From contig VGZQ01000004.1 of assembly GCA_016872535.1 (NCBI GenBank), forward strand, positions 2,626 to 66,625: a stretch of 64,000 nt of DNA, written 5' to 3'. This document shows positions 2 through 12,128 of the stretch, one piece after another. Positions within the stretch are counted from its first letter, which is position 1. Each line of letters starts with the position of its first letter. This DNA is from Rhodospirillales bacterium (GTDB lineage Bacteria; Pseudomonadota; Alphaproteobacteria; Rhodospirillales; 2-12-FULL-67-15). The position numbers and the translations under genes are program-made. The notes under the pieces are model-generated. The model had not been told where the DNA came from. It saw only the letters and a list, made by a program, of their open reading frames with translations, and did no database searches.

Positions 2-607
<606 letters not shown>

Positions 608-680: not shown

Positions 681-694
681 TTAACCCCGGTCAA
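681..694 (+). promoter_or_regulatory. FNR/Dnr/NnrR-like box (imperfect) upstream of nnrS
   Basis: TTAAC-CCCG-GTCAA is a 9/10 match to the palindrome TTGAC-N4-GTCAA that occurs perfectly at 8667. It is centred about 70 nt upstream of the in-frame ATG at 757. It overlaps the first possible nnrS start (694), so its role is uncertain. Confidence 0.35.
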
Positions 695-1953
695 TGTACG
701 CCGGCGGCGCGCGGCTCATGGTTGCGCGACACTTGTTCAGATGGCGACCGAAGTCGATGCGCGCGTTTCTCCACGTATTCCTGTCCCACGGTTTCCGCCC
801 GTTCTTCCTGTTTGCCGGCGCTTACGCGGTCATCGCCGCCGCGGCCTGGCTTGCGATCCTGCACCGGCTGTACACCGGCACGGCCGGTTCCTTTCCGCAC
901 GGCGCGATGCCGCCCCATTTCTGGCACGGCCACGAAATGCTGTTCGGCTACGTCGCTGCGGCCGTCGCCGGGTTCTTCCTGACTGCGGTTCCGAGCTGGA
1001 CCGGCCGCGCCCCGGTGCGCGGCGGAACGCTCGGCGCGCTCGCGCTCGCCTGGATCGCCGGACGGATTGCGTTGTGGGGCGCGGCGGCGCTGCCGCCGCT
1101 GCTGGTCGCGATCCTCGATCTCGCCTTCGTGCCGTTTCTCGCAGCCCTGGTGATCCGGGCGCTGGCGGGCGGCTGGTCGAGGCGCAACGCGATCTTTCTT
1201 CCCGTGTTCGCGGCGCTGTTTGCCGCCAATCTTCTCTATCACCTGGATGCCGCCGGGATCGCTCCCGGTTATGCCGGGCGCGGCCTCAACCTCGCCCTCG
1301 ACACCGTGCTGTTCCTGATCGCCGTGCTCGGCGGGCGGGTCGTTCCCGCCTTCACCACCAACGCGCTCCGGCGCGCGGGCGAGGAACGCCTGCCGGTCTC
1401 GCGCGCGCCGCTCGAAGCCGCCGCGCTGCTCGCCGTCGTCGCGCTCGCCGCGGTCGACTTTCTCGCGCCCGACGGACGCGCGGCCGGCGCCGTCGCCGCG
1501 ATCGCCGCCGTCCTGCACGCGGCTCGATTCGCGGGTTGGCGCGGCCACCGCACGCTCGCCGAGCCGATCCTGTGGATCATCCATCTCGGCTATCTTTGGC
1601 TGATCGTCGGCTTCGCCCTCAAGGCGATGGCGCTGCTCGGCGGGTGGCTGCCGCCGACCGCGGCGAGCCACGCGCTCACCATCGGCGCGATCGGCTGCAT
1701 GACGCTCGGCGTCATGTCGCGGGCGGCGCTCGGCCATACCGGACGCGAGCTGCGCGTGGCGCCGGCGATCGTCGCCGCCTATCTGTTGGTGACGGCGGCG
1801 GCGCTCGCGCGCGTCCTCGGGCCCGCGCTGCTGCCCGCGTACGCGCTCCAGGCGCTCGCCGTCACCGCGGTCCTGTGGATCGCCGGGTTCGGCCTGTTCA
1901 CTTATATATATGTCCCGATCCTGCTTCGGCCGCGCGCGCGGGCCGAAGGATAG
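694..1953 (+). CDS. nnrS: NnrS family membrane protein (NO-response regulon heme/copper protein)
   Basis: Polytopic membrane ORF with the N-terminal HGFRPFFL motif typical of NnrS, next to nirS and a Crp/Fnr regulator. Start is ambiguous: 694, 718 or 757. Start 757 fits the upstream box spacing best. Confidence 0.85.
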   Translation: MYAGGARLMVARHLFRWRPKSMRAFLHVFLSHGFRPFFLFAGAYAVIAAAAWLAILHRLYTGTAGSFPHGAMPPHFWHGHEMLFGYVAAAVAGFFLTAVPSWTGRAPVRGGTLGALALAWIAGRIALWGAAALPPLLVAILDLAFVPFLAALVIRALAGGWSRRNAIFLPVFAALFAANLLYHLDAAGIAPGYAGRGLNLALDTVLFLIAVLGGRVVPAFTTNALRRAGEERLPVSRAPLEAAALLAVVALAAVDFLAPDGRAAGAVAAIAAVLHAARFAGWRGHRTLAEPILWIIHLGYLWLIVGFALKAMALLGGWLPPTAASHALTIGAIGCMTLGVMSRAALGHTGRELRVAPAIVAAYLLVTAAALARVLGPALLPAYALQALAVTAVLWIAGFGLFTYIYVPILLRPRARAEG

Positions 1954-1954
1954 A

Positions 1955-2689
1955 TCAGCGCGACGCGGCCATGTCGGTGCGATCGGCGCCGGCGCAGAAC
2001 CGGGCCAGCCGGGCGACGTCGGCGACGATCACCCGGTGGTTTTCGGTCTTGACGCCGAGCTTGCGCAGCTTGGCCAGCACGCGCGACAGGCTTTCCGGCT
2101 TCATGGCGAGCCGCGCGGCGAGCAACGATTTGTCGTAGGGCAACGCGATCACCGCCGAACCTTCCCGCACCGGACAGCGCTTGAGGATGAATTCGGCGAC
2201 TCGCTCGGTCGCGGAACGGGTCTGCAACTGCTCCGATTCGTTGATCAGGTGATGAAGACGGGCCGACAGCGACGCCAACATGCCGAGCGCGATCTCCGGT
2301 TCCGATTGGACCCATTGCCGGAACGGCTGATTGGAGATGCGAACCAGTCGGGCGTCTTCCGCGACCAGGGCGCTGGCGGGGTAGCGGCCGCCCAGGAACA
2401 TGGCCGCCTCGGCGAAACACTCGCCACGGCTCAGGATGTGAATCACCGCTTCGTCGCCGTGGGGCGTCTGGCGAAAAAGTTTCACCCATCCCGACAGCAC
2501 CACGAAGAAACCGTCGGCCGCGTCGCCTTGCTGGAACAGCAGATGCCCTTTCGGATAGGTGCGCGGGGCGGCGCCCTTCAGCAACGTCTCCAGCTTGTCG
2601 CCCGGAATCCTGTTGAAAATTGTCAGTTGGCGGACGATGTCGAGATCGTCATCCGTCATGCGCGGAAACCCCTCTTTTTTTTCCGCCAT
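1955..2689 (-). CDS. Crp/Fnr family transcription factor, NnrR/Dnr-like
   Basis: 244 aa with a cNMP-binding-like beta-roll (GDAADGFFVVLSGWVKL). C-terminal HTH carries the E-x2-SR recognition motif (PESLSRVLAKL). No N-terminal Cys cluster, so not an FeS FNR; NO-responsive subtype is inferred from context. Confidence 0.85.
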   Translation of the reverse strand: MAEKKEGFPRMTDDDLDIVRQLTIFNRIPGDKLETLLKGAAPRTYPKGHLLFQQGDAADGFFVVLSGWVKLFRQTPHGDEAVIHILSRGECFAEAAMFLGGRYPASALVAEDARLVRISNQPFRQWVQSEPEIALGMLASLSARLHHLINESEQLQTRSATERVAEFILKRCPVREGSAVIALPYDKSLLAARLAMKPESLSRVLAKLRKLGVKTENHRVIVADVARLARFCAGADRTDMAASR

Positions 2690-2737: not shown

Positions 2738-3139
2738 CTACACGCCGAGGACGCGGTGGAGCCTCGCGTCCTGCTCGCGGAAGTGGTCGACGAACCAAGC
2801 CTTGAGGCGGCCGCCGAACTCGGCGCGGAACGTCTCGTCGTCCTCGCTGCCCTCGTAGCTGTCCATCAGGTCGCGGATTTCGTCGAGCAGACGCTCGTGA
2901 TCGAACTTGTGCGCCGCGTAGCCGTCGTAGCGGCGCTCGCGCATGACCGATTCCTCCAGCGCGAAGTGGGCCGAGATGCGCGCGTACACCTCGCCGAGGA
3001 AGGCGACGATGTTTTCGCGCGAACCGTCCCCGGCCAAATCGGCATACAGGCTGTTGAGCAGATTGATCATTTCCTGGTGCTCGTGATCGAGCGCCGGAAT
3101 GCCGGTCTTGAAGTCGTCTCGCCATTCGATCAGGGTCAT
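2738..3139 (-). CDS. bacteriohemerythrin
   Basis: 133 aa with the canonical di-iron ligand motifs LDHEHQE, HFALEE, HKFDHERL and WFVDHFREQD. Sits 18 nt downstream of the preceding operon gene. Confidence 0.85.
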   Translation of the reverse strand: MTLIEWRDDFKTGIPALDHEHQEMINLLNSLYADLAGDGSRENIVAFLGEVYARISAHFALEESVMRERRYDGYAAHKFDHERLLDEIRDLMDSYEGSEDDETFRAEFGGRLKAWFVDHFREQDARLHRVLGV

Positions 3140-3157: not shown

Positions 3158-3661
3158 TCAACGGAACACGAAGCCGCCGGTCGCGGCACGGAAGTCGACC
3201 GCCAGGCTCTGGCGGGGCGCCAGCGTCGCCTCGGTCGCGCCATGATAATCGAATCCCTCGCCGCGCGGAGAATCCCTGAGCCGCGCCTCTATGCGGTGCG
3301 TGCCCGGCGCGACGACGAACCGGCGATGAACGTTGGATGGAAAATCCTTGGCGAAGCCCTTGGGCGGAAGCGATTCGCGGAACAGGATCTTGCCGTCCAC
3401 CTCAAGCTCGACCAGCAGCGCGACGCGCTCGCGCGGACACACCAGCTTGCGGCGCATGTTGGGGGCGAGCTTGGCCAGTTCGTCGGCCGCGCGCTCGCGG
3501 CATTCGCCCGCGGGCTTGCCGCCGTGGGTGAACGACAGCACGATCTGAGCTTGATCCGGCGGCGCGGGCGCGTAGGCCGGGCCGTTGGCAAACACGCCAA
3601 GTATCGCGGCGAAGATAGCGTAGGTGACGCCTTGTCCGACGAGCGCGAGGGGACGGATCAT
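3158..3661 (-). CDS. membrane-anchored hypothetical protein (operon member, unknown family)
   Basis: 167-aa ORF whose ATG overlaps the stop of the upstream fusion gene (ATGA at 3658-3661). N-terminal hydrophobic anchor TYAIFAAILGVFA, then a soluble domain with two Cys. No family recognised. Confidence 0.6.
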   Translation of the reverse strand: MIRPLALVGQGVTYAIFAAILGVFANGPAYAPAPPDQAQIVLSFTHGGKPAGECRERAADELAKLAPNMRRKLVCPRERVALLVELEVDGKILFRESLPPKGFAKDFPSNVHRRFVVAPGTHRIEARLRDSPRGEGFDYHGATEATLAPRQSLAVDFRAATGGFVFR

Positions 3662-5232
3662 GCGCGCTCTCCCGCGGCTTCGGCGACGCGGCGTTTATCG
3701 GCGGGCGGAAACGACGGCGCCGGCTTGAGCGCCGCGAGCTGCGCTGCGAACGCCGACAGCTCGGCGGCGATCGCGCCCTTGTCCGATGTCCAGATCCTCA
3801 CCAGACGATCGCGGGGGACGCGCGCGCGCAAGGCCGGATCGCGCGCGCCCTCGATCCGCTCCTCGGTCCAGCGCACGCCGAGGCGGGCGCGGCAATGGGC
3901 GTTGCGGCAGCCGGTCAGCACCACGCCGTCCGCCAGATCGCGACTCAGGATATAGTCCACGAACGGCGGCGGCAGCATGCCGGTGCACGGCAGACTGACG
4001 GCGGCGATGCCGGGGGCCGCGAAATTGGCGACCTTCGCGCCGTGGTCGCAACCGAAGACGAGGATGCGCGGGCGGGCGCGCAAGCCCCGGCTCGCGGCCT
4101 CGACCTTGTCACGCAGCGCGGCGGTGGTCAGATCCGGGATTTCGATCCCGGCCACCAATTCGCCCATGCGCCGGAACGGCATCGCCGTCGGGCACGCCCC
4201 GGCGCAGATGCCGCAGCCGACGCACAATCCGGGATCGACCACGGGTTCCTCGGGGAACGGCCGGTCATCGGTTCGGCGCCCCATGCGGATGGCGGCGAAT
4301 GGGCAGTCGGTGGCGCACCGCCGGCAGCCGTTGCAGCTTTCGAGGTTGACGACGGCCGCGGCGACCTTCTTTTCGGGCGGCACCCACGGCAACGCCATCA
4401 GCGCGAAACTGCCGCCAACCAGGACGGCCCATGTGAACAGCGGCGACGTCGCCTCGATCAGCGGGTAGACCCACAGGTAATACCAGTCGAGCTTGACCGG
4501 CGTCGGCACCTGGGCGAGGTCCGCTGGCCCCTGGCTCATCGCCGGCACGACCAGCGAAAGAACCAGCAGCATCGCCGCCGTCCCGATCGCGAGCCCGCGC
4601 GCCGGGTTCACCTTGGCGTAGTTCACCCGCTGCAGGTGGAACCACATGATGAACAGCAGCACCAGCGGCACGGCGACGTGCATGAAGATCATCAGGGTGA
4701 AGAACCGGTCGCTGAGCTGGGCCGGCGAGGCGAAATTGCGCGCGATCTGCTCGCCGAACAGCGGCAGCGCGTCCAACCATTCGCTGGTGGCGATCGCGAT
4801 GTATTGGGCGAGCCGGTCCCACACCATCCAATAGCCGGTGATCCCGGCGGCGAACAGGAACCAAAGGGTCGGAATGCCGGTCAGCCACGAATACCAGCGC
4901 GCGCCGCGATAGCGGTCAAAGGCGAATTCGCGCAGCATGTGCACGACCACCATCACGACCATCGCGTCGGAAGCGTAGCGGTGCAGGCTGCGCATCACGC
5001 CGGCGAGATACCACTGTTCGTGGGTCATGTACTCGACCGAGCGGTAGGCTTCGTGGACGCCGGTGTCGAAGAAGATGAAGAGATAGAGTCCGGTCCCGCA
5101 CACGATCCAGAAATAGTACCAACCGAGCGCGCCCAGGCACGAAAACGGATTCCAGCGCGGCCCGAAAATCCGATCGAAGAGATTTTCGGCGTGTTCGAAC
5201 AGGAAACGGAGCGGGGCGCGGACGGCGTTCAC
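3658..5232 (-). CDS. cytochrome b-like di-heme membrane domain fused to 2x[4Fe-4S] ferredoxin and MvhD/FlpD-like iron-sulfur domain
   Basis: GTG 5232 overlaps the senC stop (GTGA). Two H-x13-H pairs lie on hydrophobic helices (SLHRYASDAMVVMVVVH, FMHVAVPLVLLFIMWFH). Two ferredoxin motifs: CNGCRRCATDCP and CVGCGICAGACP. C-terminal ILVFGCDHGA...LPCTG...DGVVLTGCRNAHC resembles the hydrogenase/Hdr-associated delta subunit. The first 275 codons of track ORF 3658..6060 are rejected. Confidence 0.8.
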   Translation of the reverse strand: MNAVRAPLRFLFEHAENLFDRIFGPRWNPFSCLGALGWYYFWIVCGTGLYLFIFFDTGVHEAYRSVEYMTHEQWYLAGVMRSLHRYASDAMVVMVVVHMLREFAFDRYRGARWYSWLTGIPTLWFLFAAGITGYWMVWDRLAQYIAIATSEWLDALPLFGEQIARNFASPAQLSDRFFTLMIFMHVAVPLVLLFIMWFHLQRVNYAKVNPARGLAIGTAAMLLVLSLVVPAMSQGPADLAQVPTPVKLDWYYLWVYPLIEATSPLFTWAVLVGGSFALMALPWVPPEKKVAAAVVNLESCNGCRRCATDCPFAAIRMGRRTDDRPFPEEPVVDPGLCVGCGICAGACPTAMPFRRMGELVAGIEIPDLTTAALRDKVEAASRGLRARPRILVFGCDHGAKVANFAAPGIAAVSLPCTGMLPPPFVDYILSRDLADGVVLTGCRNAHCRARLGVRWTEERIEGARDPALRARVPRDRLVRIWTSDKGAIAAELSAFAAQLAALKPAPSFPPADKRRVAEAAGERA

Positions 5233-6089
5233 GCGGGAAACCGACGCCCGCCGGCTCGGCCCCCGCCGGGCGGCCGGAAATGCCTCAACCACGCGCGTGC
5301 CACCACGAAGCCGATAGCGAACAACGTCAACGCGCCGACGCCGACGATGATCGGTACCCGGTAATCGAACCGGTAGCGGCCGATCGACGGATCGTAGATG
5401 GTGCAGTAGAGCTTGACTCGTCCCACGATCCCTTCCCAACTCGCGAGCGACGAGAAGCGACCGAACACCAGATCCTTGAGCGGCTCGACCAGTTGCTGCG
5501 GCTCGAAATCGGCGCCGTAGACCTGGCGGTAGACCTTGCCCTCGGCGTCGAGCAGCGTCACCTGGGCGAGATGGTCGAACCCCTTGGCCGAGGCGAAGAA
5601 GATGAACCCGGTTTCCTCGGCGAGGCGGTCGACGGTCGCGGCGTCGGCGCTGAGAAAATCCCAGTTCGGCAGCCGGATGCCCTGGGCGCGGGCGAACGCC
5701 TTCATGCGTTCGGGCGTGTCGGCGCGGGCGTCGAATCCGATGGTTATCACCCGGAACGTGTCCCGGCCGATGGACTCCTGTGCCAGTTCGACGCCGTTGA
5801 TCAAACTGTGGGTGATCAGCGGGCAGACGTCGGCGCAACTGGTGTAAATCAGGTTCATGACCACCGGCTTGCCGCGCAGGTCGGCCAGCGCCACGGGCTT
5901 GCCGGAACGGTCGCGGAATTCGTGCGCGCCGACGGTGCGGCCGATCGCCGCTTGGCTGAATTTGAATGCGGCCATGTCGTCGAAGGGCGCGCCGGCGGCC
6001 CGCGCGTCCGCGGAAGCGAACAGGACGGCCGACAGAGCCGCCCCCGCGACGATCCCCCACCCGCTCACGGATCGAAACCGATACGCCAC
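5229..6089 (-). CDS. senC: SCO1/SenC family copper chaperone with extra C-terminal TM helix
   Basis: GTG start preceded by GAGAGGGG. Signal/anchor GWGIVAGAALSAVLFASA, thioredoxin-fold CADVCP (CxxxCP) and a downstream FDH His. C-terminal hydrophobic helix IIVGVGALTLFAIGFVVA. Only the last 286 codons of track ORF 5229..7556 are real. Confidence 0.8.
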   Translation of the reverse strand: MAYRFRSVSGWGIVAGAALSAVLFASADARAAGAPFDDMAAFKFSQAAIGRTVGAHEFRDRSGKPVALADLRGKPVVMNLIYTSCADVCPLITHSLINGVELAQESIGRDTFRVITIGFDARADTPERMKAFARAQGIRLPNWDFLSADAATVDRLAEETGFIFFASAKGFDHLAQVTLLDAEGKVYRQVYGADFEPQQLVEPLKDLVFGRFSSLASWEGIVGRVKLYCTIYDPSIGRYRFDYRVPIIVGVGALTLFAIGFVVARAWLRHFRPPGGGRAGGRRFPA

Positions 6090-6163
6090 CGACTTACCCC
6101 TCTCTCGTCCCGCCGGCCCGCCGCATCGCGGCGGGCCGGCCGAACGCTCGTCGAACGGCCGCG

Positions 6164-7858
6164 TCAGCGGAGCGGCCAAACCTCCGACAGGTACTTCCAG
6201 TTGATGAAATAGTAGAGCACGAAGGAGACGAAGAACACCGTTACCAGGATCGCCGTTCCCGGCAGCTTGAGCGTCGCCTCGCTGCCGTAGCTCGCGACCG
6301 CCGCGCCGCCGCCGGGATTGACGACCGGATTGCGCTTGATCGCGGCCTCGTCGCGGGGCCTGCCGAAGAACACCGAACCGACCACGACGACGACGAAGAT
6401 GATTCCGCCCACGGTCGCCAACACCGCCGACAGGCCGTTCAGCCCCATCATCAGAAACGCGGCCGGCGGATGCTCGAACTTGAGCGCCGCGTCGGCGAAG
6501 GTCATGTCCCAGTGCCGGCGCGAAACCCCGAGCGTACCCGCCCCCATCATGAAGAAGCTGATGCCCATGACGCCGAGCCCGAACAGGTAAGGCTGCCATT
6601 TGGCGAGCGTCGGGAACATGATCTCCTTGCGGAAGATCAGCGGCACCACCAGGTACGTGACCGCCATGAACGCGAGCGTCGTGCCCGCGACCACGGTGGC
6701 GTGGAAGTGCCCGGGCACGTAGAGGGTATTGTGCATGATCAGGTTGAGCTGCTCGGAGCCCAGCACCACGCCGGAAATGCCGCCCAGGAACCCGAACATC
6801 ACCACCGACATGGCCATGCCCGAGAACGCCGGGTTGCCCCAGGGTGCGCGGCGCAGCCAGTCGAACGCCCCTTGGGTGAAGCCGCGTCGGCGTTGCGCCG
6901 CCTCGACCGCGCCGGGAACGCTCATGCCGTGGATCATGGAGCCGAGCACCGCGAGATAGATGGCGTAGCTGGTGTTGAACACCTTCCAACTCGAACTGAT
7001 GCCCGGATCGACCAGCAGGTGGTGCGCGGACGCAAGCTGGAGGAAGGCGATGTAGAGCAGGAACGCGCCCCGGCTCACCTTCTCCGACAGCGGCTTCGCG
7101 CCCAGCACCATCGCCGCGATCGTGTACCACACCGCGACGTGCGCGGAGACGTTGATCTGCTGGGACGAATGGCCCATCCCCCACCAAATCACCTTGTACA
7201 TGAGCGAATCGAGGTGCGGGATGATGCCGATCGACCACAGGAACGTCGGCACCAGAATGATCGCGCCCGAGGCGATGGTGTAGACCGCGATCACCGCCGC
7301 CGTCACCGCGCCGAAGGTCACCAACGGGATCGAGCCTTCGTAAGTGCGCTCCTGCTTGGCGATCACCAGCGTGCCGAAGAAGACGAAGCAGGCGATCAGC
7401 GCCCCGACCGCGAACACGACCAGGCCGAGATAGAAGTGCGGCGCCGCCTTCATCGGCACGTAGGAGGTGAACATGACGCTCGATTCGCCCTGCAGGACGG
7501 CGACGTTGGCCATCAACGCGCCGACCAGCATCAGGACGAAGGCGAACCACGCCCATTTCGGCGCGGCGAGCCGCGAATTGAGCAGGATGGCCGACGCGAA
7601 ATAGAGGATCGCGATCTCGAAGAAGATGATCCAGAACAGCAGCACGTCGGCACCATGCGCGGTCAGCGCGAGGTAGAACAAGTCGGCGGGCAGGATGTGC
7701 ACCGCCGGCCAGCGCGTCAGCGCGACCAGCAGGCCGAACAGGCCGCCGATCGCCAGAAACACCACCGCGACCACGGCGTTGATCTTGATCAACGCTTCGG
7801 CGTGGCGGCAGACCTTAAGGCCGGTTTCGGGACAAACCCGATGCATGAAATTTGCCAT
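6164..7858 (-). CDS. heme-copper oxidase superfamily subunit I lacking the cross-link Tyr (sNOR/NorS-like putative nitric oxide reductase)
   Basis: 564 aa, polytopic. All six canonical His ligands are present (LTAHG; WWGMGH; SAHH; PGHFH). The H-x3-Y position reads GHSSQQ, so there is no Tyr. N-terminal HRVCPETGLKVCRH motif. Flanked by a CuA subunit II and SenC, within a denitrification cluster. Confidence 0.85.
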   Translation of the reverse strand: MANFMHRVCPETGLKVCRHAEALIKINAVVAVVFLAIGGLFGLLVALTRWPAVHILPADLFYLALTAHGADVLLFWIIFFEIAILYFASAILLNSRLAAPKWAWFAFVLMLVGALMANVAVLQGESSVMFTSYVPMKAAPHFYLGLVVFAVGALIACFVFFGTLVIAKQERTYEGSIPLVTFGAVTAAVIAVYTIASGAIILVPTFLWSIGIIPHLDSLMYKVIWWGMGHSSQQINVSAHVAVWYTIAAMVLGAKPLSEKVSRGAFLLYIAFLQLASAHHLLVDPGISSSWKVFNTSYAIYLAVLGSMIHGMSVPGAVEAAQRRRGFTQGAFDWLRRAPWGNPAFSGMAMSVVMFGFLGGISGVVLGSEQLNLIMHNTLYVPGHFHATVVAGTTLAFMAVTYLVVPLIFRKEIMFPTLAKWQPYLFGLGVMGISFFMMGAGTLGVSRRHWDMTFADAALKFEHPPAAFLMMGLNGLSAVLATVGGIIFVVVVVGSVFFGRPRDEAAIKRNPVVNPGGGAAVASYGSEATLKLPGTAILVTVFFVSFVLYYFINWKYLSEVWPLR

Positions 7859-7867
7859 GTTCGCCCC

Positions 7868-8413
7868 CTATTTCCGTTCAACCACGTGGATGCGGCCGAG
7901 CATGTTGTGATGGCCGATCCCGCAGAATTCGTTGCAGATGATGGCGAACTCGCCCGCCTGGGTCGGCGTCACGGTCAGCACCATCTCGTAATCGGGGTGG
8001 ACCTGGATGTTGATGTTGGTCGGCTGCAGCGAGAACCCGTGCAGCCAGTCCATCGAGGACATGTGCAGCCGGTAGCTTTGGCCCTTCTCAAGCTCGAGGA
8101 TCGGCCACCATTCCCACAGGCGCGCGATCAGGTAGGCGTCGCCGCCCGCGGGCGGCTTCACAACCGGGATCTTGGTATCGCCTTCCTCGCGCACTTTGTA
8201 TTTCGCCACGAAGGCCTCGGCCTTGGCCGCGAACGCCTCGGGTTTGATCTTGTAGGCCTCGTTCGACAGATTCTGTTGCCCGGCGATGTGCCAATAGACC
8301 ATCGTCAGAAACATGATGATGCCCCACAGGAAGGCGATCGTGATCCACACGATCTCCATCTTGTGCAGGGGCTCGTTCCACCACAGTTTGTTTTCCGGAG
8401 GTGTGAGTGCCAT
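7868..8413 (-). CDS. heme-copper oxidase subunit II with CuA centre (NorY-like)
   Basis: 181 aa from ATG 8413. One N-terminal TM helix, then a cupredoxin domain with CuA ligands WLHGF...CNEFCGIGHHNM (CxExCGxxHxxM). 9-nt gap to subunit I. Confidence 0.8.
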   Translation of the reverse strand: MALTPPENKLWWNEPLHKMEIVWITIAFLWGIIMFLTMVYWHIAGQQNLSNEAYKIKPEAFAAKAEAFVAKYKVREEGDTKIPVVKPPAGGDAYLIARLWEWWPILELEKGQSYRLHMSSMDWLHGFSLQPTNINIQVHPDYEMVLTVTPTQAGEFAIICNEFCGIGHHNMLGRIHVVERK

Positions 8414-8426
8414 GATTCGCCCCCTG

Positions 8427-8603
8427 TCACTGCGCGATCGGGATCTGGGCGATCTCCATGATCCCCCAGATCGTGTAGAGGACCGCCGGCAGCGCGACCC
8501 CGATGAACAGAAGCGCGAACGGATTGTCGAGCAGAAGCTGCATCGGCGGCACTCGCTCGTCTTGCGGCGCGCCGGCGGCGCTTCCGGAACGGGTATCGGC
8601 CAT
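8427..8603 (-). CDS. small single-TM protein, first gene of the oxidase-like operon
   Basis: 58 aa from ATG 8603, with GGAG 8 nt upstream. One hydrophobic helix (FALLFIGVALPAVLYTIWGIM). Stop is 13 nt before the subunit II start. Sits about 70 nt downstream of the FNR-type box. No family recognised. Confidence 0.5.
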   Translation of the reverse strand: MADTRSGSAAGAPQDERVPPMQLLLDNPFALLFIGVALPAVLYTIWGIMEIAQIPIAQ

Positions 8604-8666: not shown

Positions 8667-8680
8667 TTGACTCACGTCAA
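8667..8680 (-). promoter_or_regulatory. perfect FNR/Dnr/NnrR-type box TTGAC-N4-GTCAA
   Basis: TTGACTCACGTCAA is a perfect palindrome of the Crp/Fnr half-site. Its centre is about 70 nt upstream of the first operon start (8603), consistent with a class II site at -41.5 plus a ~30-nt leader. A Crp/Fnr regulator with the E-SR helix is encoded 6 kb away. Confidence 0.6.
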
Positions 8681-11326: not shown

Positions 11327-11410
11327 CTATTTCACCGAACGCCAATCCAGCGCTCAGGCCTTGGCCCTTTCGCCGGGCAATTCGTGGCCCGCCCGCGCTC
11401 GGTCCCCCGC
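11327..11410. repeat. intergenic repeat copy A (full length)
   Basis: CTATTTCACCGAACGCCAATCC...GCCCTTTCGCCGGGCAATTCGTGGCCCGCCCGCGCTCGGTCCCC. About 75-80% identical to copy C at 14781, and its 3' half is about 88% identical to copy B at 12192. Confidence 0.5.
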
Positions 11411-11504
11411 ATGTCGCACCCGTTATCCGGCTGGCGTGGGCAAAGCACCTACTGGCAATCTTTGCCAACTACGCTATGCTGGCCGGATCGAAGGGAGATT
11501 TCCC

Positions 11505-11768
11505 ATGCCCACCAGAAACGTCAATCTGACCGACGACCAGGATGCTTTCGTCGAGAAGATGGTCAAGGCCGGCAAATACCAGAACGCCAGCGAAGCCGTG
11601 CGCGATGCCGTGCGCGGATTGCAGCAGCGCTGGAAAGAGGACGAACTGAAACTCGCGGCGCTGCGCAAACGGATCAAGGCGGGCGCCGAGGCCCTGGATC
11701 GCGGCGACTTCACCGAAGTGGACGACGCCGATCTCGACGCGGCCCTCGACAAGCTGGCCTCCAATTGA
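11505..11768 (+). CDS. parD: ParD-type antitoxin (RHH)
   Basis: 87 aa starting MPTRNVNLTDDQDAFVEKMVKAGKYQNASEAVRDAVR, the typical ParD/COG3609 N-terminus. RBS AAGGGAG. Followed 12 nt later by parE. Confidence 0.85.
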   Translation: MPTRNVNLTDDQDAFVEKMVKAGKYQNASEAVRDAVRGLQQRWKEDELKLAALRKRIKAGAEALDRGDFTEVDDADLDAALDKLASN

Positions 11769-11780
11769 GCGCGGCCATCG

Positions 11781-12128
11781 ATGGCGCGCTATCGGCTTTC
11801 CGGTCCGGCGAAGGCGGATATCTCCTCCATCCTGCGCGTGAGCGAGACGCGGCACGGCGGAGATGCACGCACCCGCTATCGCGGCTTGCTGGCGGCGGCG
11901 ATGCGCCGGATCGCGGCCGATCCGCAAGGGAGATCGACATCGGACCGAAGCGAACTCCTCGCCGGACTGCGCAGTCTGCATATCCGCCATAGCCGCAACG
12001 AGAGCCGCGAAGCCCCGGTCGGCGAGCCGGCACACGTGATCTTCTACCGCGTAGCCGGACCCGGTGTTGTCGAGATTGTGCGCATCCTGCACGACCGGAT
12101 GGAGCCGGGCTTGCATATCGGCTCGTAA
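11781..12128 (+). CDS. parE: ParE-type toxin
   Basis: 115 aa with RelE/ParE pattern (YRLSGPAKADI...HVIFYRV...VEIVRILHDRM). Confidence 0.85.
   Translation: MARYRLSGPAKADISSILRVSETRHGGDARTRYRGLLAAAMRRIAADPQGRSTSDRSELLAGLRSLHIRHSRNESREAPVGEPAHVIFYRVAGPGVVEIVRILHDRMEPGLHIGS

Follow-up and report, generated by a model that had tools for sequence, protein, structure and literature searches.

A cytochrome b, ferredoxin, and MvhD-type fusion protein in an eNOR-type operon, a candidate transmembrane electron wire

We report on a fusion protein encoded in a 64,000-nucleotide stretch (here called the window) of contig VGZQ01000004.1 from a Rhodospirillales bacterium. The gene lies at 3658..5232 on the minus strand, and its 524-amino-acid (aa) product joins a cytochrome b with six transmembrane helices to a ferredoxin domain for two [4Fe-4S] clusters and an MvhD-type domain for a [2Fe-2S] cluster, as assigned from the translation, Pfam, NCBIfam, phmmer searches of PDB, and ligand conservation. 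The fusion is a member of a real, widespread, and uncharacterised membrane protein family. Moreover, it very likely belongs to the module of eNOR, a heme-copper nitric oxide (NO) reductase, as an electron-transfer component, because the five-cofactor chain is invariant, the operon is kept across phyla, and cytochrome b is found naturally fused to SenC, to catalytic subunit I, and to a small membrane-anchored protein that we call p167. eNOR is among the most widespread enzymes that form nitrous oxide (N2O), and NO reduction by the family was demonstrated only in 2024 (PMC11214002). A conserved transmembrane heme/iron-sulfur (FeS) wire in the eNOR operon of at least five phyla bears on the electron supply or the assembly of this major N2O-forming enzyme.

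Domains, ligands, and topology of the fusion protein

The fusion gene is a 524-codon open reading frame (ORF) with a GTG start at 5232, as translated from 5232..3658 of the minus strand. At its upstream end the fusion gene overlaps senC, whose TGA stop and the GTG start at 5232 form a GTGA, as the original prediction had described, and the TGA stop of the fusion gene shares an ATGA overlap with the ATG start of p167. Thus, the fusion gene is part of a densely packed gene run.

The N-terminal part of the protein (residues 1-290; 4363..5232, minus strand) is a membrane domain resembling cytochrome b6 joined to subunit IV, with helices assigned from a homologue model. Residues 28-203 match Cytochrome_B (PF00033) at 67.6 bits, against a cut-off of 27.2, and so fall within that superfamily. 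By phmmer, the N terminus matches cytochrome b6 best among PDB entries (E 9e-20), with the two His pairs aligned to the heme ligands of b6. NCBIfam shows residues 218-293 to be similar to ExtQ, a membrane protein of the subunit IV kind. The segment that follows helix D, which is similar to ExtQ and to subunit IV of the b6f complex, carries a PEWY-like L-D-W-Y motif that the original prediction had missed. The membrane domain has two Qo-like motifs in its sequence, GxxGYWxVWD (residues 130-139) and LDWY (residues 248-251).

The C-terminal part is built from two FeS domains. A dicluster ferredoxin domain (residues 291-355; 4168..4362, minus strand) carries the motifs CNGCRRCATDCP and CVGCGICAGACP; two Fer4 motifs at residues 293-350 score above the Pfam cut-offs, as do Fer4_7 and related models, and the domain resembles the C-terminal ferredoxin of HdrA. 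An MvhD/FlpD-like domain follows (residues ~385-505; 3718..4080, minus strand) with Cys residues C395, C416, C442, and C447. It matches FlpD (PF02662) over residues 406-501 at 31.7 bits, against a cut-off of 22.3, and scores for this family reach 57 bits among homologues. PDB sequence searches match the C terminus to HdrA ferredoxin inserts and to MvhD (9sw2_D, E 5e-5 to 7e-5), and C416, C442, and C447 align with Cys residues of the latter. Moreover, residues 291-503 align with the ferredoxin-plus-MvhD C terminus of HdrA2 (NF040770, positions 570-772). The three domains that had been proposed from the sequence alone are thus each backed by Pfam scores above the cut-offs, and the sequence features listed with them are all real, including the two H-x13-H pairs (H84/H98 and H185/H199).

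Conservation of the ligands was assessed in 20 close homologues and in 118 diverse homologues down to 22% identity. Each of the four heme His residues, H84, H98, H185, and H199, is invariant in the diverse set (118/118), a point on which the cytochrome b assignment had been open to refutation. The eight Fer4 Cys residues, in two CxxCxxCxxxCP motifs, are present in 117-118 of the 118, the MvhD residues C395, C416, and C442 in 116-117, and C447 in 101. The Qo-lining motif is kept to a similar degree: G133 and D139 of GxxGYWxVWD are found in all 118 homologues, and D249 of L-D-W-Y, the counterpart of PEWY/PDWY, in 116. A covalent heme ci of the kind found in b6 was considered and rejected; Cys32 aligns with Cys35 of b6, but the column varies among C, Y, S, Q, N, and A in the 20 close homologues.

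Topology was judged from a homologue model and from loop charge. An initial model made from the 20 close homologues was discarded (pLDDT 56), and we used instead an AlphaFold model of a four-part homologue, P0121, made from the 118-sequence alignment (pLDDT 94, pTM 0.92). The P0121 model has six transmembrane helices, then the ferredoxin and MvhD domains, and then a seventh transmembrane helix with a beta-sandwich. When its membrane part was submitted to Foldseek, bc1 cytochrome b was matched with TM-scores of 0.55-0.59 and b6 with 0.70-0.72. Lys and Arg in the loops of the window protein number 10 on the inner side and 4 on the outer side, which fits an N-in/C-in arrangement. Thus, the six-helix, N-in topology put forward in the original prediction is supported by the model and the charge count, and an N terminus inside would place the FeS domains in the cytoplasm.

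The eNOR-type operon and its conservation

The gene order around the fusion is strongly conserved. We scanned one genome per species and collected 80 related loci, in which proteins are 47-91% identical to the fusion, and screened them with the window's own operon proteins, counting neighbours only at loci with enough flank. The loci are mostly from Alpha- and Gammaproteobacteria, with Magnetococcales and large sulfur bacteria besides, and the closest (L004, 91%) is from an uncultured Hyphomicrobiales metagenome-assembled genome. Isolates with the operon include Hyphomicrobium sp. CS1BSMeth3 (L010) and Thalassospiraceae LMO-JJ14 (P0097). SenC is encoded directly upstream of the fusion in 72/72 loci, and upstream genes for subunit I and subunit II were found in 60/60 and 56/56. 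p167 lies directly downstream in 76/77, the other locus having the order swapped with hemerythrin, and hemerythrin is downstream in 66/74. The shared order is subunit II, subunit I, (heme O synthase), SenC, fusion, p167, hemerythrin. A gap of ~1 kb separates subunit I from SenC in 43 of 60 loci and is absent in the window; in one case (L003) the gap contains a UbiA-family, heme O synthase-like gene.

In homologues that are 30-47% identical, from Betaproteobacteria, Nitrospirota, Bacteroidota, and Gemmatimonadota, the linkage to eNOR still holds. Of eight loci from a search with P0145, seven have a subunit I with the motif H-x-[ST]-Q-Q nearby or, at a contig end (L085), adjoining genes for SenC and p167. 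In Nitrospirota (L082, L088), the order is COX2, COX1, UbiA, SenC, and fusion, and loci of the Betaproteobacteria type (L085, L086) keep this order and add CtaA. The Bacteroidota locus (L084) runs from a COX2-cytochrome c fusion through COX1 and SenC to the fusion, and no Rhodothermus marinus homologue was among the best 120 matches to a Bacteroidota query. In Gemmatimonadota (L083), the oxidase genes are divergent and lie beside an Rrf2 regulator. A Nitrospinota homologue (L081) stands alone, with no oxidase in the 13.4 kb examined of a 15.5-kb contig.

The neighbouring oxidase carries the eNOR signature and, by its sequence, is eNOR-type. Subunit I (6164..7858, minus strand; PF00115) was aligned to subunit I of Thermus ba3 oxidase. 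The six His ligands are kept, including the equivalents of H72, H282, H283, H384, and H386, and GHSSQQ stands opposite GHPIVY such that Gln replaces the cross-link Tyr. The residue at the Tyr site separates eNOR (Gln) from sNOR/bNOR (Asn) and oxygen reductases (Tyr) (PMC8756737, Table A4), and H-x-[S/T]-Q-Q is present in 72/72 subunit I sequences adjacent to fusion homologues. Subunit II (7868..8413, minus strand; COX2/CoxB matches) retains an intact CuA motif (H...CNEFCGIGHHNM). Gln at the Tyr site together with a CuA-type subunit II therefore makes the oxidase eNOR-type. What had been called a NOR-like oxidase is a Tyr-less heme-copper enzyme as supposed, but it is to be refined to eNOR; the sNOR of the norSY-senC-orf1 cluster, known from ammonia oxidisers, was ruled out by Gln in place of Asn, both in the window and in the 72 neighbouring sequences. 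The possibility that the fusion is not phylogenetically linked to a Tyr-less heme-copper enzyme clearly fails, as the constancy of SenC, subunit I, and the Q-Q motif makes the link strong. We suggest that the gene set is a sharper genomic marker for eNOR than subunit I alone.

We note that a second family of Tyr-less heme-copper subunit I occurs beside these cytochrome b genes in more than 12 loci. Its members have the motif GGGH[V/T/I]LQF, are ~440-500 aa long, and are ~25% identical to subunit I of the window. They were located in L016 (9682-10992), L048 (5141-6451), L078 (9148-10464), and L080 (9140-10447), and also in L082, L085, L086, L088, and L091, and the family provides the COX1 part of a cytochrome b-COX1 fusion (P0225). 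No adjoining subunit II was noted in the gene tables read, and the family was searched for in the window and is absent there.

SenC and p167 have features of their own. SenC (5229..6089, minus strand; PF02630) is a SenC/Sco1 homologue of 286 aa with a CxxxC motif, a GTG start, and a Shine-Dalgarno sequence. Beyond its N-terminal anchor it has a further transmembrane helix at the C terminus, followed by a cytoplasmic tail rich in Arg, a combination that is unusual among Sco proteins. As a result of the extra helix, SenC would end in the cytoplasm just before the fusion starts. p167 (3158..3661, minus strand; homologue alignment and model) is 167 aa long, with an N-terminal transmembrane helix and a beta-rich domain. 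Searches of Pfam, NCBIfam, and PDB sequences with p167 gave zero matches. Its conserved residues are two Cys and one His only, and the two Cys, C54 and C75, are invariant in the alignment. The beta-sandwich domain is predicted to be periplasmic from the modelled topology. p167 was considered as a Rieske substitute and rejected, as it lacks CxH/CxxH motifs and a twin-arginine signal.

The family is large, and its fusions argue that the triple fusion is one part of a larger conserved unit. A HMMER search over 1.84 billion cluster representatives returned 3502 representatives at E<=1e-3 and 516 at E<=1e-30, and the best 150 were classified by domain. The window's three-part layout was found in 44 of the 150, and at least 58 have in addition a seventh helix and a C-terminal p167-like domain; about 12 more have an unassigned C-terminal extension of similar length to the p167-like part. 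Because of these cytochrome b-p167 fusions, which make up roughly half of the family clusters, p167 of the window is, on sequence evidence, a split-off piece of a four-part protein and a true partner of the fusion, and it belongs to the conserved unit as well. Split and fused forms seem to alternate among close relatives, and the p167 frame appears to run on from the cytochrome b gene in six gammaproteobacterial loci (L040, L044, L046, L059, L064, and L071). P0188 and P0203 combine cytochrome b with p167 and have no FeS domains. In P0212, SenC is fused to the N terminus of cytochrome b, which fits the extra C-terminal helix of SenC in the window. Finally, P0225 and P0164 (COX1-cytochrome b) are fusions with heme-copper subunit I in either order. 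Fusions of cytochrome b to p167, SenC, and COX1 imply that these proteins associate physically.

The cytoplasmic part of the family is exchanged in sister lineages. Cytochrome b is followed by Fer2-FAD-NAD, a domain layout like that of NqrF, in P0156, P0234, P0347, and P0353, and by flavodoxin-FAD-NAD, like CysJ, in P0154 (827 aa). Such NAD(P)H-type versions occur in the operons of L085, L086, L090, and L091, where they stand beside the Fer4-MvhD version or replace it. Moreover, in Nitrospirota a NuoF-like gene (Complex1_51K, SLBB, and NADH_4Fe-4S) lies between two cytochrome b-Fer4-MvhD(-p167) paralogues downstream of the eNOR genes (L082, 10108-11421; L088, 10102-11403). No NAD(P)H module or second cytochrome b was found in the 80 loci of the window's own clade or in the 64-kb window. 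In L090 (5544-10484), P0154 is encoded directly after genes for a PCuAC-like (LpqE-like) protein, CtaG, and SenC, and genes for NnrS, DsrC, Crp, and hemerythrin lie further downstream.

The remaining genes of the run and its flanks fit an eNOR context, with nirS, nnrS, and a Crp/Fnr gene close by in the window and heme O synthase and CtaA genes in related loci. A 58-aa ORF with a single transmembrane helix lies upstream of subunit II (8427..8603, minus strand; read from sequence) and is preceded by a Shine-Dalgarno-like GGGGAG. Genes of 52-61 aa occupy the same position in L082, L084, L086, L088, and L091, and the ORF may encode a small subunit of the oxidase, comparable to subunit IIa in ba3 enzymes. 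The final gene of the run encodes a bacteriohemerythrin of 133 aa (2738..3139, minus strand; PF01814, NF033749). It is followed by a Crp/Fnr-family regulator (1955..2689, minus strand; cNMP_binding and HTH_Crp_2), NnrS, a heme-copper membrane protein of NO-responsive regulons (694..1953, plus strand; PF05940, E 4e-109), and the C-terminal part of the cytochrome cd1 nitrite reductase NirS (17..607, plus strand; PF02239, E 2e-61). The remaining part of the window contains housekeeping genes.

Candidate regulatory elements were seen within and upstream of the operon. A 13-bp, all-GC hairpin (GCCGGCCCGCCGC GAT GCGGCGGGCCGGC) at 6112-6140 on the minus strand sits in the interval from the stop codon of subunit I (6164) to the GTG with which SenC starts (6089). 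The 86-nucleotide stretch that contains it folds at -62.5 kcal/mol (z -6.8) with no U-run behind, and the hairpin may set different expression of the structural and downstream genes. A palindrome, TTGACGTGAGTCAA, that resembles FNR/Dnr/NnrR sites (TTG-N8-CAA) was read by eye at 8667-8680 on the minus strand, ~65 nucleotides before the first ORF of the operon. A perfect match to the FNR consensus, TTGATCTTGATCAA, at 7779-7792 is within the 5' end of the subunit I coding region and could be an internal site or chance; allowing at most one mismatch, the window contains 4 matches to the consensus versus 0.59 expected. Elsewhere in the window, a candidate antitoxin/toxin pair was judged by eye at 11361-11768 and 11781-12128 on the plus strand, the first ORF with a ribbon-helix-helix-like N terminus and the second encoding 115 aa.

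Candidate roles of the fusion protein

We favour a dedicated accessory subunit of the eNOR module that would form a membrane-spanning electron wire, with a chain running from an outer heme b through an inner heme b and two [4Fe-4S] clusters to an MvhD-type [2Fe-2S] cluster at the surface. The outer end would lie at the periplasmic face beside the conserved Qo-like pocket, the FeS part would be in the cytoplasm, and the fusion, SenC, and the membrane-anchored p167 domain would form one unit. A low-potential cytoplasmic partner would dock on the MvhD domain, and electrons would traverse the membrane via the two hemes and be handed over periplasmically to the eNOR complex (CuA/subunit I) for catalysis. 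In sister lineages the partner would be an NAD(P)H-oxidising flavoprotein. The order of the cofactors we infer from the domain order and from knowledge of the b6/bc1 and Mvh-Hdr structures; complex formation, the direction of flow, and the acceptor are inferred as well.

Exchange of the cytoplasmic ends is what gives this reading its direction. The MvhD relay, FNR-type and CysJ-type modules, and a NuoF-like neighbour are interchangeable, which indicates that the inner end exchanges electrons with pyridine nucleotides or a similar carrier of the cytoplasm. Fer2-FNR modules, such as those of NqrF and oxygenase reductases, and diflavin reductases pass NAD(P)H electrons outward to an acceptor, and flow from cytoplasm to periplasm is favoured for that reason. 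The wire in the eNOR operon, together with sister fusions to NAD(P)H reductases and to the catalytic subunit, suggests that eNOR works in a larger complex tied to cytoplasmic redox carriers. The proposal in the original prediction, that quinol or a cytoplasmic donor, and not cytochrome c, supplies the electrons for CuA, is made plausible rather than established by the NAD(P)H-flavoprotein variants. We tentatively hold, at somewhat less than even chances, that the fusion feeds electrons to eNOR for catalysis without recourse to bc1 or cytochrome c. If so, it would provide NAD(P)H-driven NO detoxification that bypasses both.

Several observations weigh against catalytic input from the cytoplasm. 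Subunit II retains a complete CuA site and, in the Bacteroidota locus, is fused to a cytochrome c, and thus the classical periplasmic entry route is kept. Purified R. marinus eNOR is active with N,N,N',N'-tetramethyl-p-phenylenediamine and ascorbate (PMC11214002), and therefore the fusion is not needed for catalysis in vitro. The near-invariant Qo-like motifs point to quinol chemistry, which electron export does not need, and expenditure of NADH on NO seems improbable for lithoautotrophs, Fe(II) oxidisers for example. Moreover, no cytoplasmic partner such as an NAD(P)H module, and no second cytochrome b, was found in the window or the 80 loci of its clade. Finally, the tightest and most universal neighbour of the fusion is SenC, an assembly factor, and the Nitrospinota homologue stands without an oxidase. 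A role in CuA/SenC maturation fits about as well as the donor route.

Perhaps, then, the wire serves assembly of the copper site. As a maturation reductase, the fusion would maintain the CxxxC thiols of SenC, SenC-bound copper, and the CuA cysteines in the reduced state, with the Cys pair of p167 taking part, by analogy with STEAP/Fre metalloreductases or the TlpA/DsbD route. No neighbour is more constant than SenC, whose gene overlaps that of the fusion and which is joined to cytochrome b in P0212. The position of the L090 cytochrome b-diflavin variant directly after PCuAC-like, CtaG, and SenC genes points the same way, as do the two invariant Cys residues in the predicted periplasmic domain of p167, and the strong hairpin between the structural genes and SenC would fit a lower, accessory-level expression of the downstream genes. 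Electron transfer from heme to thiol or disulfide is chemically unusual, however, and classical CuA assembly does not require such a protein. Moreover, the subunit I fusions, and the duplication of cytochrome b genes next to a NuoF-like gene, are more in keeping with a respiratory complex than with an aid to a chaperone, and both cytochrome b proteins of Ferrigenium are detectable in a proteome. We consider a maturation reductase possible but rather doubtful; were it true, the operon would encode a new copper-site maturation system.

Alternatively, a Qo-type site that works without a Rieske protein might send electrons inward. The conserved periplasmic pocket would oxidise quinol, with one electron passed to the eNOR side and the other through the hemes and the FeS/MvhD relay to a cytoplasmic acceptor. 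This acceptor would be NAD(P)+ in sister lineages, reached through flavoprotein modules, and perhaps hemerythrin here. Inward flow of this kind was proposed for Ferrigenium as a "quinol:NAD+ oxidoreductase coupled to NO reduction" (10.64898/2026.01.22.701106). The near-invariance of GY..W-D and of the Asp of (P)DWY speaks for inward flow, as does the retention of hemerythrin downstream of the fusion, and low-potential, bifurcating systems are the typical setting of MvhD and of HdrA-type ferredoxin domains. The family also occurs in lithoautotrophs that need reverse electron flow, cases being a contig labelled Rhodocyclaceae (L085), one from a metagenome that shares its gene order (L086), and the Nitrospirota that carry the NuoF-like gene. 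However, the retained motifs could be structural remnants of a b6 fold, and the gene tables of L082-L091 list neither a Rieske protein nor another known acceptor for the first electron; the 80 loci were screened only with operon proteins of the window. Inward flow would run uphill to NAD+ and against the membrane potential, and Fer2-FNR and CysJ-type modules normally run from NAD(P)H outward. We regard inward flow, possibly bifurcating toward NAD(P)+, as unlikely; it would amount to reverse electron flow driven by NO.

In one form, inward flow would be a quinone-based bifurcation coupled to denitrification, in which a Rieske-less bc-type quinol oxidase is assembled around eNOR and NO reduction drives reverse electron flow. 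A periplasmic copper centre (SenC-bound copper or CuA, with p167 assisting) would take one electron for NO reduction, and the other would reduce a low-potential carrier in the cytoplasm, for example NAD(P)+ or ferredoxin, via the hemes and the FeS/MvhD relay. This form we think decidedly improbable. Weakest of all is a device that supplies no electrons, either for NO/redox sensing or protection or as a general quinone-linked cytochrome merely co-located with eNOR, which we take to be highly improbable: NO does react with FeS clusters and hemes, regulators (Crp/Fnr here and Rrf2 in L083) and NnrS are nearby, and one homologue stands alone, but the fusion has no output or DNA-binding domain, and conservation of all five cofactors with fusions to subunit I, SenC, and NAD(P)H reductases argues for electron transfer. 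NO detoxification, copper-site maturation, and reverse electron flow each have consequences for models of the energy yield of N2O production and of its regulation.

Comparison with known systems

A close precedent is in Ferrigenium straubiae, where two cytochrome b/[Fe-S] genes in the eNOR operon were pointed out, from annotation only, and called unusual, and where the eNOR subunits and both cytochrome b proteins were seen in the proteome under denitrifying conditions (10.64898/2026.01.22.701106). These proteins are probably of the same family and context as the fusion. Locus L086 reproduces the Ferrigenium gene order; its 522-aa cytochrome b-Fer4-FlpD protein is 48% identical to that of the window and is followed by a p167 homologue and then by a cytochrome b-Fer2-FAD-NAD protein. 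A second, NAD(P)H-linked cytochrome b of this kind sets Ferrigenium apart from the window's clade, which lacks it, and the MvhD domain, the p167 partner, the fusions, and the wide distribution were not reported in the preprint. Apart from its remark, we found no description of the family in the literature; an account of fused cytochromes b (PMC4013037) deals with b-c1 fusions only. In databases, members go under generic names ("cytochrome b N-terminal domain-containing protein" or "hydrogenase iron-sulfur subunit"). Thus, the statement in the original prediction that no characterised protein has this architecture holds insofar as none is characterised, but the architecture itself is abundant, given the 516 representatives at the stricter threshold, and had been noted in that 2026 preprint.

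Among NO reductase clusters, norSY-senC-orf1 and bNOR are similar in encoding a CuA subunit, a Tyr-less subunit I, SenC, and then a membrane protein (PMC4940428, PMC3475470). The fourth gene of the Bacillus bNOR cluster, however, encodes a six-helix membrane protein of ~190 aa, unlike the cytochrome b-FeS fusion of the window.

The membrane domain shares its fold, heme ligation, and N-in topology with b6/subunit IV and with cytochrome b of bc1, and the Qo-lining motifs are retained. The fusion differs in having six helices only, in not keeping the Cys for heme ci of b6, in the fused FeS relay that follows the presumed Qi place, and in its partnership with a heme-copper NO reductase cluster. 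Genes for a Rieske protein or cytochrome c1/f are absent from the gene tables of L082-L091. Because no such partner is encoded alongside, the fusion is placed by its sequence in the cytochrome b/b6 superfamily but outside the bc1/b6f complexes. Within NCBIfam, the top matches of the membrane part are Geobacter ExtP and ExtQ (NF040969 and NF040970) at 99 and 42 bits, far below the cut-offs of 290 and 150 bits, such that the fusion is not a member of either equivalog. Moreover, the two Geobacter proteins are separate polypeptides that lack FeS and MvhD domains.

The cytoplasmic part finds its counterpart in the C terminus of HdrA2 and in MvhD, where a two-cluster ferredoxin is followed by an MvhD-type domain in the same order as in the fusion. 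The HdrA2 C terminus forms a contiguous electron relay. In the fusion, the relay is anchored on cytochrome b rather than on a flavoprotein, and the likeness is modest, as the PF02662 score above indicates. No association with hydrogenase or Hdr was seen, as no Hdr, Mvh, or Flx genes were found in the window operon or the loci examined.

Finally, the general design recurs in NarI/NarH, in HdrE/HdrD, and in NOX, FRE, and MsrQ-Fre, all of which share the principle of two stacked b hemes between a site on the periplasmic side and a cytoplasmic FeS or flavin module. The folds are unrelated and homology was not detected, so that wires of the NarI and NOX types compare with the fusion by analogy only. 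The FNR-type sister variants, nonetheless, mimic the NOX layout. By that analogy, the wire would be a functional counterpart of NOX, ferric reductase, or MsrQ-Fre, though with a b6 fold.

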